Below, one piece after another: positions 20,279-61,165 of a stretch of 64,000 nucleotides of DNA. The notes under the pieces were generated by a model. It saw nothing but the letters and a program-made list of their open reading frames with translations. It ran no database searches and was not told where the DNA came from. Each line of letters opens with the position of its first letter. The first letter of the stretch is position 1. The DNA is from a virus, in IMG/VR virus record IMGVR_UViG_3300036828_000389, positions 1-64,000 of that record; one strand, written 5' to 3'. The position numbers were made by a program, and so were the translations under genes.

Positions 20279-20790
20279 ACCACCAGGACACCTTTGATGA
20301 CCTGTGCATCCTGCTGGAGCAGCACCTGGGTCGCGGCATCGATGACGTGGCCACCGAGATCATGGCCTTCCTGGACATCACCAGCGAGGTGATCCTCTCG
20401 GAGCGGGATCCGCCGCCGGGCCTACGCCGCTGGCTGGCCTCTCACGGACTTGTCCTGGTGGCCGCCGCCGAACCCACGCCCACCCACGTCATGGATCTGA
20501 TCGATGAGGACGACGACGTGGTCGAGGCTGAGGTGTCCACCCAGGAGAGGGCGGGGGGGAGTAGCCCTCTCCTGGGCGTGGGGGACTACGTACAGTACCG
20601 CACCGCTCCGATGGGTCCGAACAACATGAGCCAGCTGGGCTCGGGCACCGTCGTCGGCGTCCACACCGAGAGCATCGAGGTGGAGTTCTCCCCGAACGGG
20701 GGCCGGATCGTGCTGTTCCTTGAAGCCGACACCATCCAGGTGATCCGGTCTAGCCGCGACGAAGACGCCGGGTCGGAGCAGCTGCTGTAG
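20275..20790 (+). CDS. hypothetical protein with C-terminal SH3/KOW-like segment
   Basis: LGVGDYV...GTVVGV...IEVEF; GTGA overlap. Confidence 0.65.
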   Translation: MNHQDTFDDLCILLEQHLGRGIDDVATEIMAFLDITSEVILSERDPPPGLRRWLASHGLVLVAAAEPTPTHVMDLIDEDDDVVEAEVSTQERAGGSSPLLGVGDYVQYRTAPMGPNNMSQLGSGTVVGVHTESIEVEFSPNGGRIVLFLEADTIQVIRSSRDEDAGSEQLL

Positions 20791-21700
20791 CTGGCTCGGG
20801 AGCCGGAGCAGGCGCCCCGCCTTGGCGAGGGACGGCCACCTGGATCTCCACCTTGTCCAGGCGGGTCAGGAAGTCATCGAATTTGCCGCCCAGCTGGTTG
20901 GCCCACTCATCCAGACCTGACAGGAAGCTCTGTAGGGTGGCGGACACGTCCACCGCTGTCTCTACCACGGCAACGGCAGCTATGGGCTCCCCTGGGGGTA
21001 CAGGCGCCTCCTGGGCCTCCTCAGGCTCTCCCTGGGCGGCCAGGATGAGATCCACCATGGCCTGGCGGGTCTTCTTCGGCGGCACGCCCAGCTGGGCCCC
21101 GATGTCCTTCAGATCGTCCATGGACATCTTCTCCAGGTCGGTGCGAGCGAAGATCTCCATCTCCTCCGTGGCCTCGCCCTCGTCCTCGTCGGCAGCTGCC
21201 GCGGGCTCAGCCTCCTCCCCGCCTTCAAAGCTCATGGGGATGAGCCCCTCCGTCAGTTCCCGCACGTCGAGCCCGGCGTCGATGAAGCTGGAGAACATCT
21301 CCTCCTGCTCGGACGTGTCCCGCTCCTTGTCCCACAGCAGGAACAGGGCGGACCGGGGCGCCTCCTTGAGGCTCTGCTCCAGCTGGAGGATGGGATCCTC
21401 GACGTTGATGACCTTGGCGGCGTCGTTGGCCATCTCCACGAAGGCCCGCTTGGAGGTGTCGCTGGAGCGGGTGATGACCTCGTAGACGATGTCGGAGGAC
21501 TTGGCGATGGCGACGTACTCCGTCAGGGTGGCTGTGAACTCGCCGTCCACCAAGACGAACATCCACTTGACCGACTCTGAGGGCTTGATGTTGGCGTCCA
21601 GGTACTCCTGGATCAGCACCATCCCGGCATCCACGTCCATGGCTCCTGTGCCCAGGAAGCCGATGGTGATGCCTTCGGGTGTACCGCGGCGGGGGGGCAT
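20750..21700 (-). CDS. hypothetical protein with Rho-N/HeH-like helical domain
   Basis: AGGAGAAGGAG SD before ATG 21700; DLEKMSMDDLKDIGAQLGV...RQAMVDLIL. Confidence 0.8.
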   Translation of the reverse strand: MPPRRGTPEGITIGFLGTGAMDVDAGMVLIQEYLDANIKPSESVKWMFVLVDGEFTATLTEYVAIAKSSDIVYEVITRSSDTSKRAFVEMANDAAKVINVEDPILQLEQSLKEAPRSALFLLWDKERDTSEQEEMFSSFIDAGLDVRELTEGLIPMSFEGGEEAEPAAAADEDEGEATEEMEIFARTDLEKMSMDDLKDIGAQLGVPPKKTRQAMVDLILAAQGEPEEAQEAPVPPGEPIAAVAVVETAVDVSATLQSFLSGLDEWANQLGGKFDDFLTRLDKVEIQVAVPRQGGAPAPAPEPATAAAPTRRLRRG

Positions 21701-21769
21701 GCGTTCTCCTTCTCCTAGCTCAGGAGGACACCCAAGCAGCCCCAGTCCGCCAGACCAAGCCGAAGTGAG

Positions 21770-21806
21770 AAGAAAAAACAGCGCCCCGGGATCAGCCCCG
21801 GGGCAC
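21770..21806 (-). terminator. intrinsic terminator
   Basis: GTGCCCCGGG-GCTGAT-CCCGGGGCGC followed by TGTTTTTTCT. Confidence 0.8.
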
Positions 21807-21835
21807 CGTTCTGACACCGTCAACGCGTCGGGGTC

Positions 21836-33300: not shown

Positions 33301-33897
33301 CTACTTGGCGGGCCGGACCAGGCGACGCCCGCTCAGTGGTACCCATTCCGTATGTCCCTGGAGCGCGGCGATGACATCCTGCTGGAACCGCGGCATTTCC
33401 GGTTCAGCTGCAAAGGCGTAGGCGAGGCGAGCCAGGGCGTAGGCGTCGGCCTTGTTGGGGTCACTGAAGTCCTCGTTCCACCGCTTGAGGATCTCCTTGG
33501 TCATCTGATCCTTGCGGGTGTTGCCGTTGCCGGTGGCGAACTTCTTCAGCTGCTGAGGCTGGACGATGAGGGGGTAGGCCCGCCGGTCCTGGGAGTCGAA
33601 GAGAGCCAGGATGGTCATCTTGATGCAGGCCCCCACCTCGCCGGAGGCGTGCTGGCCGTACTTCTCAGCCATGCTGTAGCCCTCCATGGCGATCTGGAGG
33701 ACTTGTCCCCCTGGCTCCAGACTGGCCAGCCTGGTGAACTCGTTAGTGATGCCCACCATGAGCATGCGGAGCCGTAGCACTCCCTTTGGGATCTGGCCTT
33801 TGGGCTTCCAGCTGCTGACGATGCCCCGGGTGGGGCTCCAGGTCACCATGGCGCAATTGGCCACCCCGGGATCGATGCCCACGTAGAGATCAGTCAC
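33301..33897 (-). CDS. RuvC-like Holliday junction resolvase
   Basis: VGIDPG, IAMEGY, LKKFATGNGN, NKADAYALA; GTGA overlap. Confidence 0.88.
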   Translation of the reverse strand: MTDLYVGIDPGVANCAMVTWSPTRGIVSSWKPKGQIPKGVLRLRMLMVGITNEFTRLASLEPGGQVLQIAMEGYSMAEKYGQHASGEVGACIKMTILALFDSQDRRAYPLIVQPQQLKKFATGNGNTRKDQMTKEILKRWNEDFSDPNKADAYALARLAYAFAAEPEMPRFQQDVIAALQGHTEWVPLSGRRLVRPAK

Positions 33898-34115
33898 GTC
33901 TTGTGCCAGCGCTCTCGCATCTCGGTGGTGGCCGCAGGCTCGGGTGGGGCCTTCTTCGGCTTTCGCCGTTCGGCGGGCAAGTAGCCCTGATAGAGCCGCT
34001 CTCCACAATCAGCGCAGTACACGCACCGGCCGGTCTGTTGCCAGGTGTGGTCTTCATGGAGAGCTAGTTGCTGATCGAAAGCCTCCAGCGCTTGCCTGAT
34101 CTGGGTCTCATCCAT
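33894..34115 (-). CDS. small Zn-binding protein
   Basis: H...CVYCADCG. Confidence 0.7.
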   Translation of the reverse strand: MDETQIRQALEAFDQQLALHEDHTWQQTGRCVYCADCGERLYQGYLPAERRKPKKAPPEPAATTEMRERWHKT

Positions 34116-34876: not shown

Positions 34877-35439
34877 GGCGCTCCTCGATCTGCTCGCGCC
34901 CAGCCCGGGTTCTTGGCATCGGTCCGCCGGGTGAGTTCGCGGCTCACCACGGACGCGTCCCGCTCAGCTGACTCGTAGAGCATCTGCTTGAGCTTCCTCC
35001 TGGCGTAGATGATCTTGGCTGAGTCCCGGGCCCGCTGGATCTCGGGGTCGGACTCCATCTGGGCCCGCACCCAGGTGACAGCTTCAGTGACCCGGTCCGG
35101 CTTGTTGGCTGCCATGTACAGCCCTTCCAGGCGACGGACCTCAGCTTCGGCGTAGCGCTCGGACACGTCCTCCCCGGCGAACTGGGCCTGGAAGAAGTCG
35201 GTCCAGCGTGTCAGCTGCACGAAGAGGTTCATCAGCTGCTTGTCGGTCAGGTCATCGATGTCCTGGGGCAGCGGAGGCAGACCGAACTCTGGCGAGGAAA
35301 TCGGCTCGACCTGTAGCTCTTCGTAGGCCCGATCCCAGAGTTTCCCCCGTAGATCGCTCAGATGTTCTTGCAGGGTTCTAGGACGCTGAAGTCGATGGCC
35401 TTCGGAGGATTCTCCGCTGCGGCTGGGGGCTTTCTTCAT
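34873..35439 (-). CDS. helical protein, possibly a UvsY-like recombination mediator
   Basis: Long helices, LPxDIDDL...SRELTRR; close to recA and the exonuclease. Confidence 0.6.
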   Translation of the reverse strand: MKKAPSRSGESSEGHRLQRPRTLQEHLSDLRGKLWDRAYEELQVEPISSPEFGLPPLPQDIDDLTDKQLMNLFVQLTRWTDFFQAQFAGEDVSERYAEAEVRRLEGLYMAANKPDRVTEAVTWVRAQMESDPEIQRARDSAKIIYARRKLKQMLYESAERDASVVSRELTRRTDAKNPGWARADRGAP

Positions 35440-36337
35440 ACCGTTGACAGTCTGGGCACCCATCGAAGGGGCATCGGGGGATCTTGCCACCGTCCAGAGC
35501 AGAGCAGATGGCACGGCACTGATCCAGCCGATCTGAGATGCGCTCCTCCTCGTAATGCACGACCATCTCCTTGACCCGCTGGTTCCACTTGCACTCGTAC
35601 AGGTAGATGAAGGTCTCCGGCGCTCCCAGGTAGCTGTAGAAGTGCCCCTGGCGGATGTGGGAGGGGAACGGGATGCGGATGGCGCTCCACAGGGCGTCGA
35701 GGTCGATGAAGGTGCGATCCTTGCCGTTGAGCCGGACCTTGTAGGTGTGTTCCTCCAGCAGCCGGGGGTTCTCAAACCGCAGGGTGTTGATGCCCACGGA
35801 CTTGATCTCGATACCGGCCTGGTCCCCGTCGAGCCCGTCGGCGTGCCCGGCCATACGGAGGTGCTGGTTGTAGAGCGGCACCTCGTCAAAGCGAAGGAAG
35901 CTGCGGTCAGCCTGGCACTCCTCGCACTTCTCCGGTGCGGTACCCATCCAGGCTGAGTGACAGCTGGTGCAATAGAATTGCCCCCTGAGGCGGCCCAGAT
36001 CCCAGATCCGGCTCTGCCATTTACGGTGGATCTCCTTGCCCTCATCGAAGATCATCTGCATCTGCCAGTGGGTGATCGGCGCCTCACTGGCGGGGCGGTA
36101 CCCGGCTAGTTCGTAGTAGTTAGCTCGCGGGCACCAGTCGTTGTGGGAGACCCGGGAGGGATGCAGTACACCGCTCCTGGGCCCGTCGTCGTAGGACGGC
36201 TGCAACAAGAGCCTTTGAATGTCCCCAAGGAGCCGGGTCTCTTGCTTGGACGTTTCCAGCAACGCCCGCAGGTTGGGATCGATCAGCGGCGGCCTGAGAG
36301 ATCGCGATGATCTTGCCGGTGGCGAGGGCATCTTCAC
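35378..36337 (-). CDS. Cas4-like PD-(D/E)XK exonuclease
   Basis: HPS...WCPR; GKEIH; GHADG...IEIKS; Q..FY; C-terminal Cys cluster. Confidence 0.85.
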   Translation of the reverse strand: MKMPSPPARSSRSLRPPLIDPNLRALLETSKQETRLLGDIQRLLLQPSYDDGPRSGVLHPSRVSHNDWCPRANYYELAGYRPASEAPITHWQMQMIFDEGKEIHRKWQSRIWDLGRLRGQFYCTSCHSAWMGTAPEKCEECQADRSFLRFDEVPLYNQHLRMAGHADGLDGDQAGIEIKSVGINTLRFENPRLLEEHTYKVRLNGKDRTFIDLDALWSAIRIPFPSHIRQGHFYSYLGAPETFIYLYECKWNQRVKEMVVHYEEERISDRLDQCRAICSALDGGKIPRCPFDGCPDCQRYEESPQPQRRILRRPSTSAS

Positions 36338-36641: not shown

Positions 36642-36942
36642 CAGCCAGTTGGAAGTACTCCCGTTCTGGGAGTACGACAAAGTCTCGGCCTCCCAGCTGA
36701 AATCCGAGAACAGGGCGGCGAGACTCTGCCAGGGCGTGCCGCTCCAGGTCGATGAGGTCGTCAAGTTGGAGCGTAATTGAGCTTCGGTTATCGGTGCGCT
36801 TGAACTCGATAAGTTCAGAATCGGTGCGACCGTCGTTGCGACGGTCCCAACGCGCTCCCGAACGAGGATTACACGCCCCGTCGAACCGCTCCATTCCTTC
36901 CCGCTCCTGCTGCCGCGACAACAGAAGGCGCCGATCCCTCAC
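36334..36942 (-). CDS. PD-(D/E)XK Holliday junction resolvase-like nuclease (C-terminal half overlaps whiB)
   Basis: QE...SGA...ND...LIEFKRT...RRPVLGF in the first ~100 aa; GTGA overlaps at both ends. Confidence 0.7.
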   Translation of the reverse strand: MRDRRLLLSRQQEREGMERFDGACNPRSGARWDRRNDGRTDSELIEFKRTDNRSSITLQLDDLIDLERHALAESRRPVLGFQLGGRDFVVLPEREYFQLADGGRGSGAAAGPRTGPAGVVRQGKVLGRQRIRHGEPLLRRSPAQRSGAGSQGRLPGNPPGPPRSVPGPDRVPRVRPRQRREVGRLGGIKRKRKTPDQAATPS

Positions 36943-38039
36943 GCTCGTCGGAGGCGTCGGCCGGAGGCAGGAGGACTGACCTCAGGGCGGCGTCCCTTAG
37001 TAACTACGTCCATGACAGCATCCTGCAAGGTCTGCCTCAGAGTCAAGTCCCATCTGACCTGCTCTTCCAGGGCCGTCCGGCCATGCCAGGACTCGTCCCC
37101 GTGGTAGTAATAGGCGCCCTTGGTGGTGATCACATCGTAATAGATAGCCAAGTTAAGTATCTCCTTGGCCGGATCATACGAGCCGGGTGAGACACCCACC
37201 TCGTTGTGGTCGAAGTAGAAGTCGAAGGCTGCCACGCGCTCGGGTGGGAACCCCTTGTTCTTCTTGATCAGGCACTTGATGGAGAGCCCGACCTTGCGCT
37301 GGTTTCGCTTTTCGCCCTCTGTGAGCCATTCGTCCCGCTTTAGCTCCACTCGCGTGAAGTACCAGTAGTTCTTGGCCCTCCCACCAGGAGTTACGCGAGG
37401 ATCGCCCCAGGTCAGGCCGATCTTCTCCCGCCACTGGTTGACCATGAAGCAAGTCACCGGCCGGTCGGTCTCCACCATGGACCGCTTCATAGCGGTGTAC
37501 GCCTTGCGGAAGAACTTGCCCAGGAGCCGCGCTGCCAGACCCACCTGGGTGTCGTCCATGGAGCCCTCCGACTCGCTGACGGGGCTGAGGGCGGGCAGGC
37601 TGTCGATCACCAGGGCGTCGACCGTGCGGCTCTCCAGCACCCGGACGGCGGCGTTGGTGGCCTCCTCCAGGACGTTGGTCTGCATGACCACGATGCGGTC
37701 GGTGTCGCAGCCAAGCTCGCGGGCCCAGCTGGGCACGAAGTCCTCCGCGGCGATCCAGAAGACCGTCCAGTTGGGGTCGGTGGCCTGGTGGGCGGCGATG
37801 GTCTTCAGGATGATGGTGGTCTTCCCGCTGGACTCGTCCCCGTAGATCTCATGCCAGCTGTTCACCGTCCAGCCGCCACCCAGGGCCACGTCGAGGGCCA
37901 GGGAGCCGGAGGAGATCCTGGGGATCTCGGAGAACCGGATCTGGCTGCCCAGCACCACGGTCTCGGGCCCGTACTCCTTGTTGATCTCGTCTATGACGGC
38001 GCCGATCTGGCTCTTGGGGTCCGCCTTCTTGGTTGGCAT
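36939..38039 (-). CDS. recA: RecA-family recombinase
   Basis: SSGSLALDVALGGG, GDESSGKT, LVIDS, NQWREKIG, TPGGRA; start MPTKKA after GAGGAG. Confidence 0.93.
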   Translation of the reverse strand: MPTKKADPKSQIGAVIDEINKEYGPETVVLGSQIRFSEIPRISSGSLALDVALGGGWTVNSWHEIYGDESSGKTTIILKTIAAHQATDPNWTVFWIAAEDFVPSWARELGCDTDRIVVMQTNVLEEATNAAVRVLESRTVDALVIDSLPALSPVSESEGSMDDTQVGLAARLLGKFFRKAYTAMKRSMVETDRPVTCFMVNQWREKIGLTWGDPRVTPGGRAKNYWYFTRVELKRDEWLTEGEKRNQRKVGLSIKCLIKKNKGFPPERVAAFDFYFDHNEVGVSPGSYDPAKEILNLAIYYDVITTKGAYYYHGDESWHGRTALEEQVRWDLTLRQTLQDAVMDVVTKGRRPEVSPPASGRRLRRA

Positions 38040-38581
38040 CACTCTCCTCGTCGGTCGTGGAAGATGTCGCGCCATGCGCTGATCTCGTTTTCGCCCTCCT
38101 CAGGACTCCAGCGCATGGCGTCCGGACTATCCAGTTCGGCGGGTGGAGCGTGTACCGGTCTGGCAGGGCCCCATCCGCGCCCCGGGGTCCAGGCCGCGGG
38201 GGCACCCTCAGTGACACGACGGAGCGCTCGGGCACTGGGGCTTCGGTACTGATCGAACCCTCGTTCGCTGGCCTGCTCGGCTCTGGCTCGATATGTGTTA
38301 CGGGGAGTTAGCTCACCCCGGGCGATGACGCCCATGTTGCCCTCCGCATCTCGCACGGTGGTAAATCGCCGGGACCAGCCCCTCACCCCGGAGTTCATCT
38401 GCCGGTTGTGTTCACTCAGCTGCTGGACCGGAGATCCCGGTGGGATGCGGGTACGGCCCATGCCGACGACATCAGGGGAGTAGTCGTGGCTGTGCCGGAA
38501 GGGCCGGGCTAGTTCGTTCTGAAGCCGCTCCGCGGTCTCTTCCCGGGCGGTACGCGGTCTGCGTCGGGGCTCGTCAGGCAC
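38039..38581 (-). CDS. Arg-rich protein with shared C-terminal tag (copy 1)
   Basis: GGAGGAG SD; ends DAMRWSPEEGENEISAWRDIFHDRRGE. Confidence 0.75.
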   Translation of the reverse strand: MPDEPRRRPRTAREETAERLQNELARPFRHSHDYSPDVVGMGRTRIPPGSPVQQLSEHNRQMNSGVRGWSRRFTTVRDAEGNMGVIARGELTPRNTYRARAEQASERGFDQYRSPSARALRRVTEGAPAAWTPGRGWGPARPVHAPPAELDSPDAMRWSPEEGENEISAWRDIFHDRRGE

Positions 38582-38906
38582 CTCTCCTCCGATCATGAAA
38601 GATGTCGCCCCAGGCACCGATCTCATGCTCCCCAGCTGCGGGGCTCCAGGACATGGCATCGCCTGGGTCGGGCTCGGCAGGCAGGTTCCACCGCATGGGA
38701 TCGCGGCCCGGGTGGCCGTGAGCGGTCTCCATGTAGGTGTCCATGCCCAGCCGGTCACTGGCTACATACTCGGGATCGTGTTGCAGGTCGTGGATCATCT
38801 CGGCGTAGCCCCGGGAGACACGGAAGGCGGGGTTGGTCGAGCGGGGCGGCTTGTACCCGTGCATCTCACCCAGATGCGCCAGCAGATCCTTCTTGTTCCT
38901 AGCCAC
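38574..38906 (-). CDS. His-motif protein with shared C-terminal tag (copy 2)
   Basis: ends DAMSWSPAAGEHEIGAWGDIFHDRRRGA. Confidence 0.75.
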   Translation of the reverse strand: MARNKKDLLAHLGEMHGYKPPRSTNPAFRVSRGYAEMIHDLQHDPEYVASDRLGMDTYMETAHGHPGRDPMRWNLPAEPDPGDAMSWSPAAGEHEIGAWGDIFHDRRRGA

Positions 38907-38909
38907 GGT

Positions 38910-39152
38910 TCATTTCTTCTTGGCGGGCTTGCTCACCTGGATGCTGGGGTACTTCTTCGACACCCTGGACCGGACAGAGGACTTCTCAGCTGAGGTGCCG
39001 TGCTGGCTCACCCGGGAGAGGGCGTTGGCGGCCCGCTTCTTGGTGTCGATGGGGTAGTTGCCGGGCTCCCCCTTCTCCTTGCCCTTGGCCTTGGACGGGA
39101 CGCCGAAGTCGCTCTTGGGCAGGCTCTCACGCTTCGCCTTGCTGATCGCCAC
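38910..39152 (-). CDS. small Lys-rich protein
   Basis: R.SLPKSDFG.P...YPID...AANALSRV, a motif familiar from phage head-region proteins. Confidence 0.8.
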   Translation of the reverse strand: MAISKAKRESLPKSDFGVPSKAKGKEKGEPGNYPIDTKKRAANALSRVSQHGTSAEKSSVRSRVSKKYPSIQVSKPAKKK

Positions 39153-39286
39153 TACTTCCCCCTGCTGGTCTTCTTGGCTGCCTTCTTCGCCGGGGCCTTC
39201 TTGGCCTTGTCGTCCTTGTCGTCATCCTTTTGGCCGAACGGCTTGGCCTGCTTGCCCCCGAACGGATCCTTCTTCGTGGTTGCCAT
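39152..39286 (-). CDS. 44-aa Lys/Ala-rich peptide (not in ORF track)
   Basis: MATTKKDPFGGKQAKPFGQKDDDKDDKAKKAPAKKAAKKTSRGK; GAGG SD. Confidence 0.7.
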   Translation of the reverse strand: MATTKKDPFGGKQAKPFGQKDDDKDDKAKKAPAKKAAKKTSRGK

Positions 39287-39679
39287 CTATTCCTCTCTTC
39301 TGTCGTGAAAGACTGACTGCCACTCTCCCATTTCCTTCTCACCGGCCTCAGGGCTCCAGCGAGCCGCATCGCTACCCGACTCCGTCCATCGACGCTGACG
39401 GCCGACGGTGGGGTCATGTCCGCCCGGGTCGTGCCCCATCAAGTCGGTGTACTCCTGACGGTTGGCCCGGTGCCGCCAGAGCCCGTAGCGGATGGTCTGG
39501 CGCCGGATGGCTGGGGTCCAGGACTCGCCCTGCTTCCCACTAGCCGCTTGGTCGATAGCTCCCTGGATCTTTTCATGGACTTCGGCATCGGGTGTGCCGA
39601 CGTGGGTGCGCCCCAGCATGCGGTCGATTGATCTGGTGGGGACCAGGGGGTCCACCTGGGGCTTACGTGGCTTTGCCAC
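39287..39679 (-). CDS. protein with shared C-terminal tag (copy 3)
   Basis: ends DAARWSPEAGEKEMGEWQSVFHDRREE. Confidence 0.75.
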   Translation of the reverse strand: MAKPRKPQVDPLVPTRSIDRMLGRTHVGTPDAEVHEKIQGAIDQAASGKQGESWTPAIRRQTIRYGLWRHRANRQEYTDLMGHDPGGHDPTVGRQRRWTESGSDAARWSPEAGEKEMGEWQSVFHDRREE

Positions 39680-39872
39680 GCTTGGGCTGGGGTTCGCGCC
39701 CGGTCTCCCGGGTCTTGGCGGCCTTCTTGGCCATTTGGCTACGTCGCTTGGGGCCCTGGGCGGATGCGTTGGAGATGGCGGCAGCCTTGGACTTGGAGTA
39801 GCCCTCGTCCTTTAAATCCTCGTACAACTTTGGCCGTTTAATGCTGGGCCCAGGATCTTTACCGCCCGGCAT
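39663..39872 (-). CDS. small basic protein (DUF7218-like)
   Basis: GPSIK.P.LYE.L..EG.SK.KAA.ISNA; AGGAGG SD. Confidence 0.75.
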   Translation of the reverse strand: MPGGKDPGPSIKRPKLYEDLKDEGYSKSKAAAISNASAQGPKRRSQMAKKAAKTRETGREPQPKRGKAT

Positions 39873-40182
39873 GATTCCTCCTAAGGATGATTCGTCTAGG
39901 GGGTGTGGCTTTCCAGACCCTTTGGCCCCGACCAGATAGTCCTTGGCGTTTTCGATCCGTTTCGATCACGAAGCCCTTACGAACCAAGGGCCGGAGCCGT
40001 GGAGATATCGTCACCTTGTCCAGGCCAGTTGCTCGGGTGATGTCGTCCAAGATGGCACCCTGCTCGCCGGTCGCTTGCACGACATCGAACACCATGTTCT
40101 CCAGGTAAGTGGCGTTGACTGACTGAGCAGCGTCAACCGCTGTCTCTATATCGCGACGCCGATACGCTCCCGGTTCGCTCAT
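39859..40182 (-). CDS. winged-helix DNA-binding protein
   Basis: GA..DDI...TISPRLRPLVRKGFV...R...SGR.Q.VW. Confidence 0.8.
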   Translation of the reverse strand: MSEPGAYRRRDIETAVDAAQSVNATYLENMVFDVVQATGEQGAILDDITRATGLDKVTISPRLRPLVRKGFVIETDRKRQGLSGRGQRVWKATPPRRIILRRNHAGR

Positions 40183-40691
40183 CTCACGTTGGCCCAGCTG
40201 AAGTCGGTGTTCCCGGCCAGGCTGGCGTCGACCTCAAAGTGCTGATCGCCCCTGGGATTGTCACTGCGAGCGAACTGGGTGGGCCCGGAGGACTTCATGC
40301 CGATGGCGTTGAGCATCCGGCCCGACTGCTCAAACAGGTCGCCGTTGTAGCCGCAATCGGTGCAGAGCGGGGCGCACTCGGCGTTGGCCCAGCGTCGACT
40401 GAAGTAGTTGCCACCACCGCACTCCGGGCAGCGACTGACCTTGCCGATGTTGCCTGGCGCCTTGGCGACGTATCCCTGGGTGTGGACCCGTTGCCAGTTA
40501 GCGTCGTCACTGCCCTCCGGCTGGACGTTACCCACCTCCTGGCGCGGACCAGTCGGAGGGTACGACTCCCGCCAGCGCACGGCTTTGGCAGGATAGGAGC
40601 CCGGTACAGGGGCAGCTGGGGGCGTCGTGACCGGTGCCTCCGGCGCTCCTGTCCGCCCCAGGTGTCGTTGCCACCAACCGTTATCACTCAT
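40179..40691 (-). CDS. Zn-ribbon protein
   Basis: CPECGGGNYF...CTDCGY. Confidence 0.75.
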   Translation of the reverse strand: MSDNGWWQRHLGRTGAPEAPVTTPPAAPVPGSYPAKAVRWRESYPPTGPRQEVGNVQPEGSDDANWQRVHTQGYVAKAPGNIGKVSRCPECGGGNYFSRRWANAECAPLCTDCGYNGDLFEQSGRMLNAIGMKSSGPTQFARSDNPRGDQHFEVDASLAGNTDFSWANVR

Positions 40692-40697
40692 AAATCG

Positions 40698-42935
40698 TCA
40701 CTTACACTCGGCCCAGTTGTTTCCAACACTGATATTTGCGATCAGAGGTATGTCGAGGACCGGGTGGCCATCCAGCCGGACATCCTCCATAGCCTCACGC
40801 ACCAAGGGTAAAGCCTGGTCGACCACGTCTTCGGCACACTCGATGACGAACTCATCGTGGATCTGGAGAACCAGGTGGGCGTCGAGCCCGGCCAGGGCCC
40901 GGTGTACCTGGACAAGTCCGATCTTGGCTATGTCCGCGGCCGTGCCCTGGATGGGGTGATTGACGGCCTGGCGCTCGCTGTAGAACTTGAGTCCGTTATC
41001 GGAGGAGTTGATCTCTGGCAGCCGCCGTTTGCGGCCATATAAGGTCTCGACGTAGCCATTCGACCGGCAGAACCGCTTGACCGAATAGCCCCAGCGCTTG
41101 ACCCCTGGGTAGGCCCGGTGCCAGGCTTCCCAGACGGCTTCAGCCTCTCGCTCAGAGATGCCGGACATCTCCATGACCCGGCCGGGGCCGCCCTCAAAGG
41201 CGAAGTTGAAGTTGCTGTTCTTGGCGATGGCCCGCTGCTCGCCGGAGACCTGGGTCTCGGGGATCCCCCAGATCAGAGCGGCGGTCTGGAGGTGCAAGTC
41301 CAGGTCATGGGTGTAGGCGTAGAGCAGGCGCGGGTCTCGGGTCTGGTAGGCCAGGATCCGTAGCTCGATCTGGGAGTAGTCGGCCACGATCAGCCTCTTG
41401 CCCGGTGGGGCCACGAACAGCTGGCGGATCATGGTGGCCTCAAAGCTCTCCTTGTGGCGCGCCGGGATGTTCTGGAGGTTCGGACCGCTACAGCTGAGCC
41501 GCCCGGTCTTGGCCACGGCCTGGTTGAAGCTGGCCCGGATGCGGGCGTCCTCACCGATGTGAGGCATGAACCCGACCACGTAGGTGGACAGCAGCTTGTT
41601 CACGTCCTTGTACTCCAGGAGCCGCCTGGGTTCCTTGTGGCGTCTTGCCAGGCTCTTGAGAGCGGGAGCCGCGGTGGAACGCTGGCCCGTATCAGTCAGG
41701 ACGGTGCAGCGCAGGGGAGGGTCCAGTTCGTCATAGAGCCACTTGCCCAGCTGCTGGGTGCTGTTCAGGTTGATCTCATGGCCCACCATGGACCGGATGT
41801 CGTCACCGATCTCGGTCAGCTGGGCCTCCAGCTGGGGTCGCAGGATTCCGAATCCCGTGACATCAACATGGGCTCCCTGCTGACGCATGTCGAGCAGTAC
41901 CCGGAGTACATCCATCTCCAGGTCGAAAAGACTGGCCAGCTTCGGCTTCTTCTTCAGGACGCGATGGATTTTCCACCACAGCATCCAGGCCATCTTGGCG
42001 TCGGTGATCGAGTACCTCATGGCCCGCCGCCACTCGACGTTGTACGCCTCCTCACCCAACTTCTCGACGTAGGTGAATCCGATGTAGGTCTGGGCCAGAG
42101 CCCCCAACTTGTAGCTATCCAGGTTCTCGTTGAGTAGGAACACCATCATCATCACGTCGGCGTAGGGCGGCGGCGGGATTTCGCCGTAATACTTGGCGAT
42201 GGATAGCAGGTCGAAGGCCACGTTCTGATTGATCTTGCGCCGGTCGGAGAAGAACAGCGGCTTCAGGGCGGCTAAGACTTCGGTGCGGTCCAGCTGACGG
42301 CGTTTGTCGGGATGTCCCATGGGTATGACGTGCGACACGCCCGGACCCGCGAGGGATAGGCACCAGACTTTGTTGGTCCGGGTGTCCAGGGCCGGTTTAT
42401 CCTTATCAGCTGCCTTCCGGCAGAGATCAGAGCAGTAGGCGCGGCGCTTGGAAGGGATGGGTAGGCCACAGGCCAGGCAGGGAGTGGTCCCCTCCCGGTG
42501 CCTCGTCAGCACCTTGCGACCGGATTGCAGCATGCGGACCGGTCGGTCCCCACGGGTCTCGACATCGAAGGCGAACTCCGAAAAAGCCGAGTAGACGCTG
42601 ACGACTTCTTCTAGCTCATCCCTGGTGGTGATGGTCTTAACGGGACTGACGTTCTGATCAGTCTGGCGCAGCACCCAGGATTCAAACTGCTCGTAACCGG
42701 CGACGTGGCCAGGCGGCTGAGGGCTGCCCAGCCGCCTCCACGTCTTCTCCACCTTCGTGGAATACTCGATGTCGGCGTCAGTGAATTTGCGGCCGCCATG
42801 GGTGCCATCGGTCTTCTCGGTGCGATGTGCTTCCTCATGGTCAGCGTCGAGGGCGCACAGCCAGGTGCCCCGGTAGTCCCAGCGACCGTCCTTCTCCTTG
42901 CGGGGTTCCCTGCGCCGGGCAGGGCATTTGGCCAC
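40698..42935 (-). CDS. family A DNA polymerase with 3'-5' exonuclease
   Basis: ExoI FDVET, ExoII NVAFDL, ExoIII YSITDA, TGRLS..PNLQNIP, motif A DYSQIELR, motif C IHDE. Confidence 0.95.
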   Translation of the reverse strand: MAKCPARRREPRKEKDGRWDYRGTWLCALDADHEEAHRTEKTDGTHGGRKFTDADIEYSTKVEKTWRRLGSPQPPGHVAGYEQFESWVLRQTDQNVSPVKTITTRDELEEVVSVYSAFSEFAFDVETRGDRPVRMLQSGRKVLTRHREGTTPCLACGLPIPSKRRAYCSDLCRKAADKDKPALDTRTNKVWCLSLAGPGVSHVIPMGHPDKRRQLDRTEVLAALKPLFFSDRRKINQNVAFDLLSIAKYYGEIPPPPYADVMMMVFLLNENLDSYKLGALAQTYIGFTYVEKLGEEAYNVEWRRAMRYSITDAKMAWMLWWKIHRVLKKKPKLASLFDLEMDVLRVLLDMRQQGAHVDVTGFGILRPQLEAQLTEIGDDIRSMVGHEINLNSTQQLGKWLYDELDPPLRCTVLTDTGQRSTAAPALKSLARRHKEPRRLLEYKDVNKLLSTYVVGFMPHIGEDARIRASFNQAVAKTGRLSCSGPNLQNIPARHKESFEATMIRQLFVAPPGKRLIVADYSQIELRILAYQTRDPRLLYAYTHDLDLHLQTAALIWGIPETQVSGEQRAIAKNSNFNFAFEGGPGRVMEMSGISEREAEAVWEAWHRAYPGVKRWGYSVKRFCRSNGYVETLYGRKRRLPEINSSDNGLKFYSERQAVNHPIQGTAADIAKIGLVQVHRALAGLDAHLVLQIHDEFVIECAEDVVDQALPLVREAMEDVRLDGHPVLDIPLIANISVGNNWAECK

Positions 42936-52384: not shown

Positions 52385-52887
52385 CGGTCGAACCAGTACT
52401 CCAGTGAAGACCTGTCCACTCTGACCTGTCCAGCCCTGTTGGGGGTATACTGTACGCCCTCCGTCTGGGCAGACCTCTCGCCGGAAAACCTGAGGCTCCT
52501 TCCGCCTCCGCTGCGCTCCGGCTCAGGAGCAGAAGTGTGCTGGCCACCCCAGTGCCCTGTGGGCACTAGACTATCCTGCCTGCCGAAAAATTTTCTAGTC
52601 GAAGTGAGATTTCGGCCTTTGACCAGGGGTGGAGGAGGGCAGGAACAGGAAACCAGGATCTGAAATCCTCCTGTGTCCAGTCCAATGATGGCGTCGTTGT
52701 CTATTAATTGCTTTATGAGATCCCGGGCTCTGCCCATGGAGTTGTGGGAGTTATAGACGTAGCGAGCCAAATCGTCCGCGACTTCTGATGGCGTCCAACG
52801 CAACACTCCCTTCCGTGTGGCCTTCCGGCTCATGCGGCTCAAAGCGCGGTGGAGCGATGTTTGTTCAAGCTCACGACAGTTCTCCAT
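52381..52887 (-). CDS. hypothetical protein, possible winged-helix replication initiator
   Basis: AAGGAGG SD; first gene of the replication operon; WTPSEVADDL...LIKQLID. Confidence 0.55.
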   Translation of the reverse strand: MENCRELEQTSLHRALSRMSRKATRKGVLRWTPSEVADDLARYVYNSHNSMGRARDLIKQLIDNDAIIGLDTGGFQILVSCSCPPPPLVKGRNLTSTRKFFGRQDSLVPTGHWGGQHTSAPEPERSGGGRSLRFSGERSAQTEGVQYTPNRAGQVRVDRSSLEYWFDR

Positions 52888-53067
52888 GAGCGCCGCCCTC
52901 CTTGATTGTTGACGGTGTTACGTCCCGGTCCCTGCCGGGAGGTGGTTCGGGTGTACTACCGCCAGTCGACCGCGTCAAGCTGATGCGGGAAGTTGTCGGA
53001 GATCCCCAGGTTGTCCCCAGTCAGGGGTGGTCGCGGTGGACAAAGCCTTGGTGCATAGGCTTTTTTC

Positions 53068-54720
53068 GTGACCTATGTGGACGATCCGCGCCTGGACGAG
53101 CCTGAGTCTGATGGTGAGGAGGAGGGGGCTGAGCTTTCCGATGAGCTACAGGATCTGGCCCCTGCTGTCCTCGACCCAGGTGACCAGCAGTTTGTAGATC
53201 GCCTGGTAGATAAAATCTGGCAGTTCACCCTGGAATTCAGCGGCGTCGCCATGTTTCCGTACCAGGCTGCTCTCGGTCGACGCATCATTGAGTCGGTGGT
53301 AGGTAGCGACGGCTCCACCATCACCGGAGAGTTCTCCCGCCAGTCGGGCAAGACGGAGGTGGTGGCCAACGTGGCCGCCAGCCTCATGATCCTGCTGCCC
53401 AGGTTGGCCGCCATGTTCCCAGAGTTCGGGCCCCTCCAGAAGTATCTCCGCGGCGTCATGGTGGGATGCTTCGCTCCAGTTGAACAGCAGGTAGAGACCC
53501 TGTTCGGCCGGGTGGTCGACCGGCTCACCAGCGACCGGGCCCTGGAGCTACTGGAGGATCCGGACATCGATGACGAGGTCCGTCCCGGCTCCCGTAAGGT
53601 CCGCCTGAAGAAGTGCCAGAGCTTCTGCGCCATGCAGACCGCCAACCCCCGGGCCAAGATCGAGTCGAAGAGCTACCACATCATCTTCATCGATGAGTCC
53701 CAGAGTGTGGACGAATATACTCTGAACAAGAGCATCGGACCCATGGGCGCCTTCTATTTAGCAACCATGGTCATGACCGGCACCCCCGATGTGACCAAGG
53801 GCGTGTTCTACAAGACCATCCAGCACAACAAGAGGATGGAGCTACGCCGGGGCGGCCGGAAGAACCACTTCCACTTCGACTGGAAGTACTGCGCCCGGTA
53901 CAACCGTAACTATGCGGCTTATATTCGGGGTGAGGCTCTACGGATTGGTGAGGACTCTGACGAGTTCCGGCTCAACTACAAGCTGGAGTGGCTGCTGGAG
54001 CGGGGCATGCTCATCACCGAGTCCCGGTTGGATGAGCTTGGTGACCCCAGCATGCCCATCGTCCAGAGCTACTGGAAGAGCCCGCTCATCGCCGGGATCG
54101 ACTTCGCCCGCAAGATGGACTCGACCGTCGCCACCGTGGTGTGGGTGGATTGGGACCGGCCCGATGAGTTAGGGCTGTACGACCATCGTATTTTGGGATG
54201 GCTGGAGATGCATGGGGAAGAATGGGAGACCCAGTACTGGCGACTTGTGGACTGGTTCTCCAATTACTCCGTGATGGCTATCGGCGTCGACGCGCAAGGC
54301 GTGGGTGACGTAGCAGCTGACCGGCTGAAGCGACTGCTTCCGAACATCCAGGTGGAACCACTGTCGTCGCAGATCGCGGATCAGTCCATGCGGTGGAAGC
54401 ACCTTCAGCAGCTGCTACAACGTGGCCTGCTGTCCTGGCCCGCCCACCCAAAGGCCAAGAAGACCAAGAACTGGCGCCGGTTCCGCCAGCAGATGATCGA
54501 CGTGGAGAAGAGCTACAAGGGCGCCCACATGATGGTGGAGGCCCCCAACGAGGCCGGGGTCCACGACGACTACGTCGACAGCCTGGCCTGCGCCACCATC
54601 ATGAGCCGGACGTTGATGGTGCCGGAGGTCGAGATCATGACCACTCCGTGGTCGCCGTCACCTCGACACGGAGAACGGGTCCGCCGCCCCCGGGCTAGGG
54701 CCGGAGTAAGCCTGGGCTAG
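53068..54720 (+). CDS. terminase large subunit
   Basis: FPYQ, SRQSGKT, IFIDE, MTGTP, GIDFAR, HDDYVDS. Confidence 0.95.
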   Translation: MTYVDDPRLDEPESDGEEEGAELSDELQDLAPAVLDPGDQQFVDRLVDKIWQFTLEFSGVAMFPYQAALGRRIIESVVGSDGSTITGEFSRQSGKTEVVANVAASLMILLPRLAAMFPEFGPLQKYLRGVMVGCFAPVEQQVETLFGRVVDRLTSDRALELLEDPDIDDEVRPGSRKVRLKKCQSFCAMQTANPRAKIESKSYHIIFIDESQSVDEYTLNKSIGPMGAFYLATMVMTGTPDVTKGVFYKTIQHNKRMELRRGGRKNHFHFDWKYCARYNRNYAAYIRGEALRIGEDSDEFRLNYKLEWLLERGMLITESRLDELGDPSMPIVQSYWKSPLIAGIDFARKMDSTVATVVWVDWDRPDELGLYDHRILGWLEMHGEEWETQYWRLVDWFSNYSVMAIGVDAQGVGDVAADRLKRLLPNIQVEPLSSQIADQSMRWKHLQQLLQRGLLSWPAHPKAKKTKNWRRFRQQMIDVEKSYKGAHMMVEAPNEAGVHDDYVDSLACATIMSRTLMVPEVEIMTTPWSPSPRHGERVRRPRARAGVSLG

Positions 54721-54879
54721 TACGGCAGCCAGGTTCTTCTGAATCTCGTCCTTGCTGTTGCCACCCAGCTTGTCGCCCTGGGCGATATACCGATCAGCTG
54801 GGCCCCGCCGTCGTTTCATCGGCACGGTACCGGTCGCACGCTGCATGGCGCTCAGCTGAGCCCGCTCCTGGGACGCCAT
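54658..54879 (-). CDS. small antisense-oriented protein (leaderless)
   Basis: TACGCT-N6-ATG; overlaps the terminase 3' end. Confidence 0.5.
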   Translation of the reverse strand: MASQERAQLSAMQRATGTVPMKRRRGPADRYIAQGDKLGGNSKDEIQKNLAAVLAQAYSGPSPGAADPFSVSR

Positions 54880-54992
54880 GGCTCAAGCGTAACCGATAGC
54901 AACTACATGGTGCCCTATCGCCGGGTGGCCGCGGTGTGAACCGGAGGCGTCACTAGCGTTCATGGAAACACCATAGAAGGAGCGCGTGCCGT

Positions 54993-55394
54993 ATGAGCAT
55001 TGCCCCCGACCCAGGATTCCCAGAGCGCGGCATGTACCGCTACGAGGAGACCATGGCCCCGGCGCGGCCGGGAGGTCGTGGCCCGCTCCGCTTTGAGGAA
55101 GGTTTGGCCACCGACACTGATGTCCCCGACGACTTCACCAGGGGGATGTTGGAGCCGATGATCCCTGCCCCGGGGAGGCTGAACCACGTCAACCCAGCCA
55201 TACAGTTCAAGATGCCGGAGGAGACCATCCAGGAGCGGGTCCACGTCGGCTCCGCGGCCTGGGTCGACGCCCCCACCATGTTGGGGGAATTTGCTCATGG
55301 GAGCTTCACGGATCAAGCCGAAGTCCGCTACGAAGAGGTGGTCCGCAACGGTCGCAACCAGAAGCGTCGGGCTCCTGAGGTCGTCACCGACTGA
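54993..55394 (+). CDS. conserved phage protein (probable head-associated)
   Basis: RGPLRFEEG.ATDTDVP.DF...ER.HVGSAAW; GAAGGAG SD. Confidence 0.8.
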   Translation: MSIAPDPGFPERGMYRYEETMAPARPGGRGPLRFEEGLATDTDVPDDFTRGMLEPMIPAPGRLNHVNPAIQFKMPEETIQERVHVGSAAWVDAPTMLGEFAHGSFTDQAEVRYEEVVRNGRNQKRRAPEVVTD

Positions 55395-56413
55395 TGCCGC
55401 GGCGGGCGTCCGGCCTGGAGGTGCCGCCCAGCGCTGGGCGGGCCATCGTAACGGCGCGCCCTAACCTATGGATCCCGCCGCCGCCGGAGGAGGCGCCGGT
55501 ACGCACTGCGTCGGGTGGCGTGAGCCATGCGGGCTGGTCGGAGCGCTACCCGAAGTGGGACTTGTCCCAGGAGGAGCAGCGCCAAGCTGCCGTCCAAAAC
55601 CTGACCACCTTTCATGACGTACTCCGGCGCCATGCTCCTGAGAGCTTGGAAGAGGGGCGTCGCTGGCACGAAGAGGCCCACCTGGGCGCCAGCGCAGCCA
55701 TCCGCGGTAGCCGGAAGATCCGCAGTACCAGTCGCCGGAGCGCCCATGAGGCCGCCTCTGGGACGCTGGCCATCCTCAGCCCGGCCATGGACTGGAAGGC
55801 GGGCAACGTCCCGGCCCTGCACGCTGCCCTGCAACTCAGGCCCGAACACTGGAAGACAATTGAGCGGGCCCACAAGGCGGGGGGTGGTCGCTCAGCTGAG
55901 GTCACCGCTATCACCAAGGGCAGCCCTCTCGACCAGGCCACCACCAGTGCGCTCTACAAGACGCACCAGATCCTGCATGGGGGTGCCCATCCCCTGGACG
56001 TGATCAGTGCCCAGACCTCACCCAAGGAGTGGCACTTCTATCACGACCTGGAGTTCCCCACCGAGTCGCACGGGGAAGGCGCCACCATCGACTACCGGGC
56101 CCACGACGTGGCCATCAACCGGATGTACCCGCCTCGCTACGGCCGGGGCCTGGAGGCAGGGTTCACCAAGACCGGTAGGACCGCTACCCGGTACCAGCAC
56201 TTCGCCCGCGCTTACCAGACGGCGAGCGAGGCGAAGGACTTTGAGCATCCGAAGCACTTCCAGGCTGCGACTTGGCTGGGCGGTAAATACGTAGAGACCC
56301 TGCCCCCGAAGAAGGGCGGGGGCCAGCGGAAGGTTGGCGTCCCTCGCCGGAGCCAGCCTTACTTCTTGTCGCCCGGCGAGGAGGGGTATGAGCGTTGGGG
56401 TCATGCTGGATAG
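55394..56413 (+). CDS. DUF7178-like / DNA-glycosylase-fold protein
   Basis: EGRRWH..AH...AILSP..DW...N; PK...F; TID.RAH; Y.....AY..A...QAATW. Confidence 0.65.
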   Translation: MPRRASGLEVPPSAGRAIVTARPNLWIPPPPEEAPVRTASGGVSHAGWSERYPKWDLSQEEQRQAAVQNLTTFHDVLRRHAPESLEEGRRWHEEAHLGASAAIRGSRKIRSTSRRSAHEAASGTLAILSPAMDWKAGNVPALHAALQLRPEHWKTIERAHKAGGGRSAEVTAITKGSPLDQATTSALYKTHQILHGGAHPLDVISAQTSPKEWHFYHDLEFPTESHGEGATIDYRAHDVAINRMYPPRYGRGLEAGFTKTGRTATRYQHFARAYQTASEAKDFEHPKHFQAATWLGGKYVETLPPKKGGGQRKVGVPRRSQPYFLSPGEEGYERWGHAG

Positions 56414-56576
56414 CCAGCGTGTAGCCCTGTTCGTGCGCCGCCTCCTGGAGGGTCGCCCAGAGCCGGTCTCCCATCTTGATGGTCTCGGCCATCTCGCTGG
56501 GATCGCTGAAGCCATGCCGCCGGTCCAGGTAGTCCCAGAGCAGGGCGAAGTACTCGTCCGACAACTCGATACCCAT
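56184..56576 (-). CDS. antisense-oriented hypothetical protein (leaderless)
   Basis: TACGAT-N7-ATG; first ~60 aa protein-like (LSDEYFALLWDYLDRR). Confidence 0.5.
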   Translation of the reverse strand: MGIELSDEYFALLWDYLDRRHGFSDPSEMAETIKMGDRLWATLQEAAHEQGYTLAIQHDPNAHTPPRRATRSKAGSGEGRQPSAGPRPSSGAGSLRIYRPAKSQPGSASDAQSPSPRSPSGKRGRSAGTG

Positions 56577-56595
56577 AGCACCCATCGTACCGTAA

Positions 56596-56868
56596 ATGGC
56601 TGCTCCATGGGCGGGTTCGCCCCACCACCCCGTATTTTCTGTCGGAGGCACCATGGCTGACAAGCCGTACATCCAGAACGTGCCGGTCCCGTACATGGAC
56701 GTGCAGACTCTCTGGAACGACCGCCGCGACCCCCACGCCAGTCCCCTGAGCAGTGCGCCGCGGCGGGAGTCGGCGCGCACGGCGCCCGGCAACCTGCACC
56801 GCATGGTTGACGAGATCTACACGGGCGTCCCTAACCCGGGTGGCAAGCCTGCCGGGAGCGAGAGGTAA
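56596..56868 (+). CDS. hypothetical protein (probable start MADKPY after GGAGG)
   Basis: TAATG coupling to the next gene. Confidence 0.65.
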   Translation: MAAPWAGSPHHPVFSVGGTMADKPYIQNVPVPYMDVQTLWNDRRDPHASPLSSAPRRESARTAPGNLHRMVDEIYTGVPNPGGKPAGSER

Positions 56869-57065
56869 TGGGGACTGACGCCAACCCCATGGCTGTGTCC
56901 CAGCTGCATCGATTCCGGCCCCGGTACGCAGCCAAGGCCGCCGGTACGCCTCAGCAGCGCTATCAGAACTCGGTTGTCGTCCAGTTCCAGTCGACGGCTA
57001 AAAAGCGGCGCCTGCCGAAGACTCAGCAGCAGCTGGAGCAAGAGCGACGGGCGCAGCGACGCTGA
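56868..57065 (+). CDS. small basic protein
   Basis: TAATG/TGATG couplings. Confidence 0.65.
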   Translation: MGTDANPMAVSQLHRFRPRYAAKAAGTPQQRYQNSVVVQFQSTAKKRRLPKTQQQLEQERRAQRR

Positions 57066-57481
57066 TGGCGGGTGAGAGGTTCTTCGGCCGCGCCGCCCAT
57101 GACGGCAAGTACATCACCGGGGTGGAGCGTCATCCGCCTTCCGATATCGAAGGCACGTCCGGGTCTCGCGGCCCAGCTGAAGTCGCCTTTCACCCTGAGT
57201 TCGTCCACCCCAGTGTCTGGCGCTCCCAGGTCTACTGGGACCGGCGAGAGGAGGGACGGCGCCCGAACCCCACCTGGGTCCGTCCGTTCCAGCAGTCCGA
57301 GCATATGCGGGAGTTCCCCCCGGGATCCGAAGAAACGGGGATGCGAGGTGGGAAGCCGGAGCAGAAGTCGGACATTTTTGAGCCCCTAGCTCACCGCTTC
57401 CCGGGAGAAATGAACAAGCTGTACATGCCCTTCCAGCCTGGTATCGACCCACTGCCACCCAACCCACCCATGTACCAGTAA
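57065..57481 (+). CDS. hypothetical protein
   Basis: Coupled upstream; abuts the portal start. Confidence 0.7.
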   Translation: MAGERFFGRAAHDGKYITGVERHPPSDIEGTSGSRGPAEVAFHPEFVHPSVWRSQVYWDRREEGRRPNPTWVRPFQQSEHMREFPPGSEETGMRGGKPEQKSDIFEPLAHRFPGEMNKLYMPFQPGIDPLPPNPPMYQ

Positions 57482-59254
57482 ATGGCCATACAGTTCCAGT
57501 CCCCCAGCTATCGGGCAGCTAGTTCCGACCTCACCATCCAGATCTCTCCCCTGGGTCTGGTGGAGCTTGCCGACGAAGAATTTGAGGTTCACGGTCCCCG
57601 GTTGAACCGGTACGCCATGAACTGGGCCTTCTACCTGGGATACCACTGGGCCCAGCGACCGGACCTGGGCGAGCCCCAGCTGACCTTTAACTATGTGCGC
57701 GCCCTGTCGGACTTCACCACCAACTTCGTCTTCGGTAAGGGCATCGGGTTCCGCACTCCGGACGCCACCGGAGCGATAATACCGACGCGGCTCCAACGTA
57801 TCTGGGAGAAGGACAACAGCAAGGACTCCCTCATCTGGGAGGCCGGGTCCATGGGGTCAGTGTCAGGTGACTGCTTTGTCAAGGTGGCTTACGAGGAGCC
57901 GTGGGAGGATCCCTCCGGCATGCCTCACCCCGGACGTGTCCGTATCCTGCCCCTGAATGCTGCGTTCTGTTTCCCTGAGTGGCATCCCCATGACCGCAAG
58001 CGGCTGATCCGCTTCAAGCTGAAGTACCGCTTCTGGGGCACGACCCAGGAGGGAACAAGGCAGGTATTCACCTACACTGAGTTGTTGACCGAGAACTTCA
58101 TCGAGGAGTACGTCAACGACGAGTTGATCGACCAGCGTGAGAACCCGCTGGGGGAGATCCCCGTCGTTCACATCTCCAACCTGCCCATCGCTGGCTCTCC
58201 CTGGGGGATGCCCGACATACAGGACATCACAGTCCTCAATCGGGAACTGAATGAGAAGGCCACGGATATCAGCGACATCATCAATTATCATGCTGCGCCG
58301 GTCACGGTGATCACGGGCGCGCGTGCCTCCAACCTGGAGAAGGGCACCCACCAGACCTGGTCGATCCCCAACAAGGAGGCCAAGGTCACCAACCTGCTCT
58401 TCGATCCCCAGGGCATCGAGATGTCGCTTAAGTTCCTGGAGTTCGTCAAGCAGGCCATGCACGAAATGACCGGGGTTCCTAAAAGTAGTTTAGGCGACGA
58501 GCAGCCGATTTCTAACACCAGTGGCGTGGCCCTGGCCATTCAGTACCAGCCGTTGATGAACCGGTTCAAGCTCAAGGCCACCCAGTACGGGGAGGGCTTC
58601 GCGGAGGTCAACCGGCTGGCCCTCAAGACCCTGTTCATGAAGGAGCCCGAGACTCTGGTGTACAACCCAGAGTTTGATCCGCCCCTCCAGGATGACCAGC
58701 TGCCGATGTTGGATCCGATGGATCCGATCACCTACGAGTCGACAGTTCACTTCCAGCCGCCCCTGCCGGTCGACCAGCTGGTGAAGCTGAACGAGCTACA
58801 GGTGAAGATGGCCCTGGGCCTGGAGTCGAAGAAGGGGGCCCTGCGTGAACTGGGCGAGGAGCAGCCGGACGAGAAGCTGAGCGAACTCTTCCACGAACTG
58901 ATTGATGATGCCGAGCAGCAAGCTGCTCTGGACTTACTGCGGTCCCAGATCGCTGGCTTCACCGTGATGCAGACCGGCATGGTGCCACCAGAGGGACCAC
59001 AGCCCATGCCCCCGCCCCCGGCTAACGGGAACGGGAACGGCAAGTCCAAGAGCGGCGGTAGCTCCGGAGGAGTGAAGTCAGCTGGTGGGCCTAACGTCAA
59101 CGTGGCCCCCGGATCCAAGCCGCCCCCTGGTGTCCTGCCTGGTCTCGACCTCACCAGTTCGGCGGATGTCAAGAAGATGTTCGACCGAGTGGTGGCTCTG
59201 AGCCACGGCACCGTGTTGCCACAACGACGTAAACCTGAGGAGGATGAACCTTGA
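57482..59254 (+). CDS. portal protein (SPP1-like)
   Basis: NYVRA..D, GD.FVKV, NPLGEIPVVHI.N, G.PDI, SGVAL; between terminase and scaffold. Confidence 0.92.
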   Translation: MAIQFQSPSYRAASSDLTIQISPLGLVELADEEFEVHGPRLNRYAMNWAFYLGYHWAQRPDLGEPQLTFNYVRALSDFTTNFVFGKGIGFRTPDATGAIIPTRLQRIWEKDNSKDSLIWEAGSMGSVSGDCFVKVAYEEPWEDPSGMPHPGRVRILPLNAAFCFPEWHPHDRKRLIRFKLKYRFWGTTQEGTRQVFTYTELLTENFIEEYVNDELIDQRENPLGEIPVVHISNLPIAGSPWGMPDIQDITVLNRELNEKATDISDIINYHAAPVTVITGARASNLEKGTHQTWSIPNKEAKVTNLLFDPQGIEMSLKFLEFVKQAMHEMTGVPKSSLGDEQPISNTSGVALAIQYQPLMNRFKLKATQYGEGFAEVNRLALKTLFMKEPETLVYNPEFDPPLQDDQLPMLDPMDPITYESTVHFQPPLPVDQLVKLNELQVKMALGLESKKGALRELGEEQPDEKLSELFHELIDDAEQQAALDLLRSQIAGFTVMQTGMVPPEGPQPMPPPPANGNGNGKSKSGGSSGGVKSAGGPNVNVAPGSKPPPGVLPGLDLTSSADVKKMFDRVVALSHGTVLPQRRKPEEDEP

Positions 59255-61141: not shown

Positions 61142-61165
61142 CTCCAAATGCCAAGAGGAGAAGCA

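Follow-up and report, generated by a model that had tools for sequence, protein, structure and literature searches.

Why should three small proteins that share nothing else end in the same peptide, in genes lying just upstream of recA? The question arises in the first 64 kb, hereafter the window, of the 75.5-kb IMG/VR virus record IMGVR_UViG_3300036828_000389 (63% GC). Proteins encoded in the window include WhiB, RecA, a family-A DNA polymerase, TerL, portal, scaffold and major capsid protein. The virus is an uncultured soil actinophage of a subclade related to Streptomyces Borockvirus phages, the closest cultured relatives being BRock, GiJojo, Alone3, LuckySocke and pSt2308 (portal identity about 60%); blastn of the region against 50,697 phage records gave no DNA-level match. 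We show below that the three genes, here called A, B and C, carry a C-terminal tag that is maintained by selection as a peptide and belongs to a wider group of terminal motifs, and we discuss its possible use as a docking handle.

All three genes are on the minus strand: A at 38039-38581 (180 amino acids, aa), B at 38574-38906 (110 aa) and C at 39287-39679. The start of C is uncertain, with either GTG at 39679 (130 aa) or ATG near 39619 (110 aa), and its database copy P0003 has the 110-aa form. The extended tag covers about the last 27 residues of A (38042-38122) and positions 38577-38660 and 39290-39370 in B and C, respectively, with the consensus C-terminus DAxxWSPxxGExExxxWxx(I/V)FHDRR. The initial annotation had described these as three unrelated proteins with a common C-terminal tag, and the open reading frames (ORFs) and tails are indeed as it quoted them. 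The bodies deprived of the tag gave pairwise Smith-Waterman z values of -0.6 to -0.9 (500 shuffles), that is, no similarity. With body-only z below 0, and 31 clusters among 49 motif-bearing bodies in BLASTP (see below), hidden paralogy or a single full-length family is ruled out. Protein homologue searches gave near-identical relatives only; the sole database relative of B is a near-identical copy, P0001. The body of A recurs in P0008 and P0009, its body family being listed as P0007-P0009 together with L092:2817-3206. In the whole 75.5-kb record the tag profile detected these three copies only, with E-values of 1e-9 to 1e-20.

The gene directly downstream of A is recA (36939-38039, minus strand; Pfam RecA, 8.6e-51), and the stop codon of A overlaps the recA start in TGATG. 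As the initial annotation had proposed, and as our reading of the sequence confirmed, the last tag codons also supply the ribosome-binding sites of the next genes, recA included. The Shine-Dalgarno sequence is GGAGAG before the recA ATG (TGATG overlap at 38039-38037), GGAGGAG before the GTG of gene A and GAGAGGAA before the ATG of a 44-aa gene. The longest recA ORF extends further, to an ATG lying within tag A (38039-38075). The real recA start is likely the ATG at 38039, since both the relatives and the TGATG overlap favour it.

To which level, DNA or peptide, does the conservation belong? Codons were compared among four sequences, the three window copies and that of the related locus L023. 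Over the 25 core codons, synonymous divergence (pS) was saturated (0.69–1.26) while non-synonymous divergence (pN) was only 0.12–0.26. More than one codon was used at 12 of the 12 invariant residues that have synonymous codons, the other two invariant residues being Trp. Saturated synonymous sites together with conserved amino acids show purifying selection on the tag peptide and not on its DNA, as had been claimed initially, and A, B and C are therefore not recent DNA duplicates. Thus neither of two alternatives named in the initial annotation, full-length paralogy or conservation as DNA or RNA only, held on examination.

We then asked how far the extended tag reaches beyond these three genes. 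A profile built on the same four sequences gave 18 matches at E up to 1e-3 among 1.84 billion representative proteins. Thirteen of them are small proteins of 48–202 aa, and every one carries the full tag at its extreme C-terminus, where the peptide often continues as E-G-R-R-D-R-P-x. Apart from the gene A type, most of their bodies are unique, and in the shortest members (48–65 aa) about half of the residues belong to the tag. The remaining five matches were judged spurious: three are proteins with LGFP repeats, and the other two (P0015 and P0016) are repetitive. At the DNA level, a degenerate tag pattern was found in three viral and three metagenome contigs and gave 0 matches in about 185,000 prokaryote genomes. 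The full tag occurs within the DNA polymerase-recA (pol-recA) island of four other contigs (L023, L039, L041 and L042), with two adjacent tag genes in L041; in 4/4 the last tag gene abuts recA, in an interval that is otherwise highly variable among 32 related loci. Neither the full tag nor protein A was found in a cultured phage, and tblastn of A gave no match. No Pfam or PHROG family was assigned to A, B, C or ten further motif ORFs, a literature text search with the motif strings returned no relevant paper, and the ESM Atlas gave no usable match, all structural matches having template modelling (TM) scores below 0.4. No description of the motif exists in the libraries searched, and its occurrence is limited to an uncultured subclade.

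The tag does not stand alone. Its last part belongs to a core motif, (P)-D-L-F-[H/N]-D-R-R-x-E-G-R-R-x-x-P, or more generally Φ-F-[H/N]-D-R-R-x-E-G-R-R-x-x-P with a hydrophobic residue first and usually a preceding helix. The 27-aa tag is one lineage, or extended version, of this broader peptide of about 16 residues in the phage subclade. We traced the core motif in 50 portal loci and the related recA loci, where small motif-bearing ORFs are concentrated in the pol-recA and terL-portal intervals, both of them variable islands. BLASTP clustering of 49 motif ORFs gave 31 body families, with the motif at either terminus. In a first class, to which a small zinc-ribbon protein belongs, 0–11 residues separate the motif from the C-terminus; these are diverse small ORFs, located about 2–2.5 kb upstream of the portal gene or in the pol-recA island. 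In a second class, the motif lies upstream of a body of about 45–75 residues in variable small ORFs, most of which end just before the portal gene; in several, namely L054, L055 and L063, the motif closely follows a start codon. Such a small motif ORF directly precedes the portal gene in about 15 subclade relatives. In the window, this place is taken by a 138-aa gene of the second class (57065-57481, plus strand), with an internal core motif VYWDRREEGRRPNP at 57215-57277 (profile A7, E 2.8e-11).

Among the 26 subclade loci in which 3 kb or more of sequence precedes the portal gene, 18 have core-motif ORFs, one to three each, in the terL-portal interval, compared to 0/7 distant loci. A conserved small head-module protein carrying the related motif L-W-N-D-R-R-D-P-H-A follows the same distribution (22/26 subclade portal loci and 0/7 distant loci); in the window it is a 90-aa protein (56596-56868, plus strand) with LWNDRRDPHA at 56710-56739. 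The core-motif profile had no match in three complete Borockvirus genomes or in one 100%-complete distant relative. The body of the A type was found with the extended tag both in the window, upstream of recA, and in L038, between terL and portal, while in L092 it carries a degenerate homologue of the tag together with a G-R-R-D-R-P extension. The tag is thus both mobile and integral to the motif genes.

Some further observations concern the two islands. Zinc-ribbon (C..C...C.C) orthologues have two alternative tails, P-D-L-F-H-D-R-R-E-E or an unrelated N-N-P-P-I-x-N (L023:3897-4223 and L020:2167-2340 versus L012 and L036), so that the motif seems to have been gained or lost on a single body. 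The pol-recA interval (window 38100-40700; loci L005-L036) is a hypervariable island in which each relative has different accessory genes between conserved small ones, namely those for a 170-aa FSWSNVR protein, a DUF7218 protein, a Lys-rich 44-aa protein and a phrog_16160 protein. At the other island, terL opens a plus-strand head operon, with no small-terminase gene recognisable upstream (window 52887-53068), and the terL-portal stretch (53068-57481) contains several unannotated small genes, including DUF7178 at 55394-56413. Downstream of the capsid gene, a 182-aa protein (61148-61696) has near its end F-L-R-G-R-R-Y-R-V-P-R-D-L-Y-D-W, loosely like the aromatic plus Arg-Arg theme.

Predicted structures separate the tag from the bodies. 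AlphaFold2 was run on A with a 14-sequence alignment (the 13 full-tag proteins and the degenerate P0017). In this model (predicted TM score, pTM, 0.24) only an N-terminal helix (residues 12–25) and the tag helix (160–179; block-mean predicted local distance difference test, pLDDT, 81–94) were confident. The model of B (pTM 0.26) likewise placed the tag in a helix, at residues 89–109. The tag is thus predicted to be a confident terminal helix of about 20 residues on otherwise low-confidence bodies. It begins with an S-P-E-E cap, is acidic in its first part and ends with the basic D-R-R. Relative to the conserved W (position i), the conserved I/V and F are at i+3 and i+4.

What could such a peptide do on so many different bodies? 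The initial annotation had inferred a portable targeting peptide, for instance a C-terminal analogue of the T4 internal-protein targeting sequence. Portability on unrelated bodies stands, with the 31 families; the T4 analogy fails on its defining features, given below. We tentatively propose, as the reading that we favour although it falls somewhat short of probable, that the tag is a portable docking peptide bringing unrelated small proteins to a common partner, possibly at the portal vertex. In this scheme, the core peptide, which about 30 unrelated small accessory proteins carry at their C-terminus or close to their N-terminus, would act as a docking handle for one common phage-encoded partner. 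More speculatively, this partner could sit where flexible terminase tails dock, on the packaging or portal vertex.

The portal vertex is the leading candidate because of the likeness of the tag to TerL tails, the known role of such a tail in P22 and the clustering of the motif between terL and portal; the related motif of the conserved head-module protein is a further reason for this speculation. The TerL proteins of BRock, GiJojo and pSt2308 end in NPFYDRRR, having the F-x-D-R-R core in common with the tag, and TerL of the distant IMG/VR relative L091 ends in PFHGRR. We estimate that a given protein would show such a match by chance within its seven C-terminal residues with a probability of about 1e-4. 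In P22, the basic C-terminal tail of TerL is required for binding to the procapsid portal, as earlier reported for T3 and lambda, and the portal-binding tail of gp2 comprises residues 483–499 (PMC5290284). The portal also receives C-terminal tails from adaptor proteins (PMC12407722). The candidate partner in the window would be the portal protein encoded at 57482-59254 (plus strand), which corresponds at about 60% identity to the annotated portal of the cultured relatives. With the core motif concentrated in the terL-portal interval, the L038 gene located there and cultured TerL proteins ending in FYDRRR, the link of the tag to the head module has circumstantial support.

Several observations weigh against this proposal. 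In the subclade of the window, TerL ends in TPW...RR.R instead of F.DRR (TerL, 53068-54720, plus strand; tail TPWSPSPRHGERVRRPR... at about 54643-54717), so that the resemblance to a TerL tail comes from more distant relatives. The three tag genes of the window sit in a replication/recombination block and not in the head block. The C-terminus of the scaffold (59251-60051), which ends in REDLHRAASAQYRNR, is without F-x-D-R-R. The smallest members leave almost no space for a cargo. Finally, an amphipathic character of the tag helix had to be dropped as a claim, since its Eisenberg hydrophobic moment was no higher than that of shuffled sequences.

The small size of the bodies, their lack of a Pfam domain and their mostly low-confidence AlphaFold models raise another possibility, namely that the tag is itself the active part. 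The helix would then be an effector in a fast-evolving pool of small proteins, inhibiting or modulating for example a host factor or the adjacent RecA, and the bodies would be variable, largely disordered modulators. This would fit both the shortest members, in which there is about as much tag as body, and the position of the last extended-tag gene next to recA in 4/4 of the other contigs whose pol-recA island contains the tag. However, the A-type body is conserved across several clusters, including its confident N-terminal helix, a tag gene was found in only one of the 32 related recA loci (L023), and the core motif is also present on conserved head-module proteins. We therefore regard an effector helix as a possible but rather unlikely explanation.

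Could the tag instead be a capsid-loading or ejection signal, as the initial annotation had suggested, by which tagged proteins would enter procapsids and be delivered with the DNA? Enrichment of the motif in the terL-portal interval and its resemblance to TerL tails would be compatible with this, and targeting peptides working at either terminus are known, for example in encapsulins. On the other hand, the head module yielded no gene for a prohead protease, a corresponding motif is missing from the scaffold and the three window genes belong to an early/replication block, which makes such a signal doubtful. Equally doubtful, on present sequence comparisons, would be a clade-wide address system in which a terminase-tail-like peptide at either end takes dozens of interchangeable small proteins to the portal vertex or capsid, for packaging or injection.

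By analogy with the leader and follower peptides that recruit enzymes to ribosomally synthesised and post-translationally modified peptides (RiPPs), the tag might also be an enzyme recognition peptide, a degron or a modification site. A conserved terminal peptide, at either end, with a variable remainder would be expected in such a case. However, no candidate enzyme co-occurred in the loci examined, where no dedicated test for one was made, and we hold this explanation to be improbable. Still less credit can be given to an arginine-rich nucleic-acid-binding tail, whose D-R-R-x-E-G-R-R would touch DNA or RNA: the cluster of four arginines is conserved, but the interleaved conserved acidic residues, the invariant aromatic residue and the acidic upstream helix would be atypical of such tails. 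Lastly, a DNA or RNA element, a by-product of Shine-Dalgarno constraint, a remnant of recent duplication or chance, for which only the Shine-Dalgarno sequences formed by the last codons speak, is effectively refuted by the saturated synonymous sites, by motif copies near N-termini and at internal positions with no gene start after them, and by hidden Markov model E-values down to 1e-20.

A second C-terminal motif, R-R-[I/L]-x-R, is unrelated to the tag. RecA ends in SGRRLRRA (36942-36990), and the motif is also present at the C-termini of 35378-36337, 33301-34008 and 20750-21823, as well as in 39859-40182. A regular-expression count gave five genes compared to 0.05 expected from shuffles; one of them, 14445-14801 ending in RKVLR, fits less closely. 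The whole proteome has seven occurrences, of which five fall in the last 16 residues, and nearly all related loci have a RecA C-terminus of the form P-x-R-R-L-x-R-x-K-K or a close variant.

Whichever partner the putative docking peptide may have, about 30 families of dark-matter proteins are united by its motif. Short peptides that are portable and direct many unrelated phage proteins to a single site are rare, and they are useful, since they show hubs of the infection cycle, explain the functional uniformity of hypervariable gene islands and can be reused as tags. If the partner were the portal vertex, the peptide would represent a new route by which actinophages bring accessory proteins to their packaging machine; if it were a host factor, the tagged proteins would form a diversifying host-takeover set. 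Should the address system be true, it would provide a natural protein-loading tag, and the RRLxR-KK tail on RecA and other DNA-metabolism proteins would suggest a wider use of terminal short motifs in organising infection.

How does the tag compare with known systems? It has a local likeness (WSPxxGxxEI and then W) to the LGFP cell-wall repeat (PF08310), and the tag profile weakly matches multi-repeat LGFP proteins, but only 18 columns align, through summing over repeats. Homology is ruled out: 0/14 members matched PF08310 at E up to 10, whereas the matched LGFP proteins do fit the model. The beta-clamp motif (QL[S/D]LF) is similar only to the D-L-F of some copies; the Gln is absent and its position is occupied by P, G, H, E and others.

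Encapsulin cargo-loading peptides and scaffold C-terminal helices (P22; 80alpha and SaPI1 CpmB) tether different proteins to a shell of HK97 fold and, like the tag, are terminal peptides or helices common to unrelated proteins. The motif sequence differs, however. Encapsulin cargo-loading peptides are Gly/Ser/Leu-rich and LxIGSLK-like, while the tag consensus is W...F-H-D-R-R, and the tag genes lie beside recA and pol, or terL and portal, rather than an encapsulin shell gene. A capsid-binding helix of the scaffold type was rejected on the C-terminus of the phage's own scaffold, given above. The T4 capsid-targeting sequence resembles the tag in being a portable peptide common to otherwise unrelated small phage proteins. 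It is, however, an N-terminal sequence of about 10 aa that the prohead protease cleaves off, whereas the window tags are C-terminal, the sequences are unlike and PHROG and Pfam scans of the head-module proteins revealed no prohead protease gene; the tag is thus not of the T4 type. As for the terminase tails of P22 gp2, T3 and lambda, the tag differs from them in its presence on many small non-terminase proteins, at either terminus, and in the different tail of the window's own TerL, but shares with them the character of a short, flexible and basic terminal peptide.

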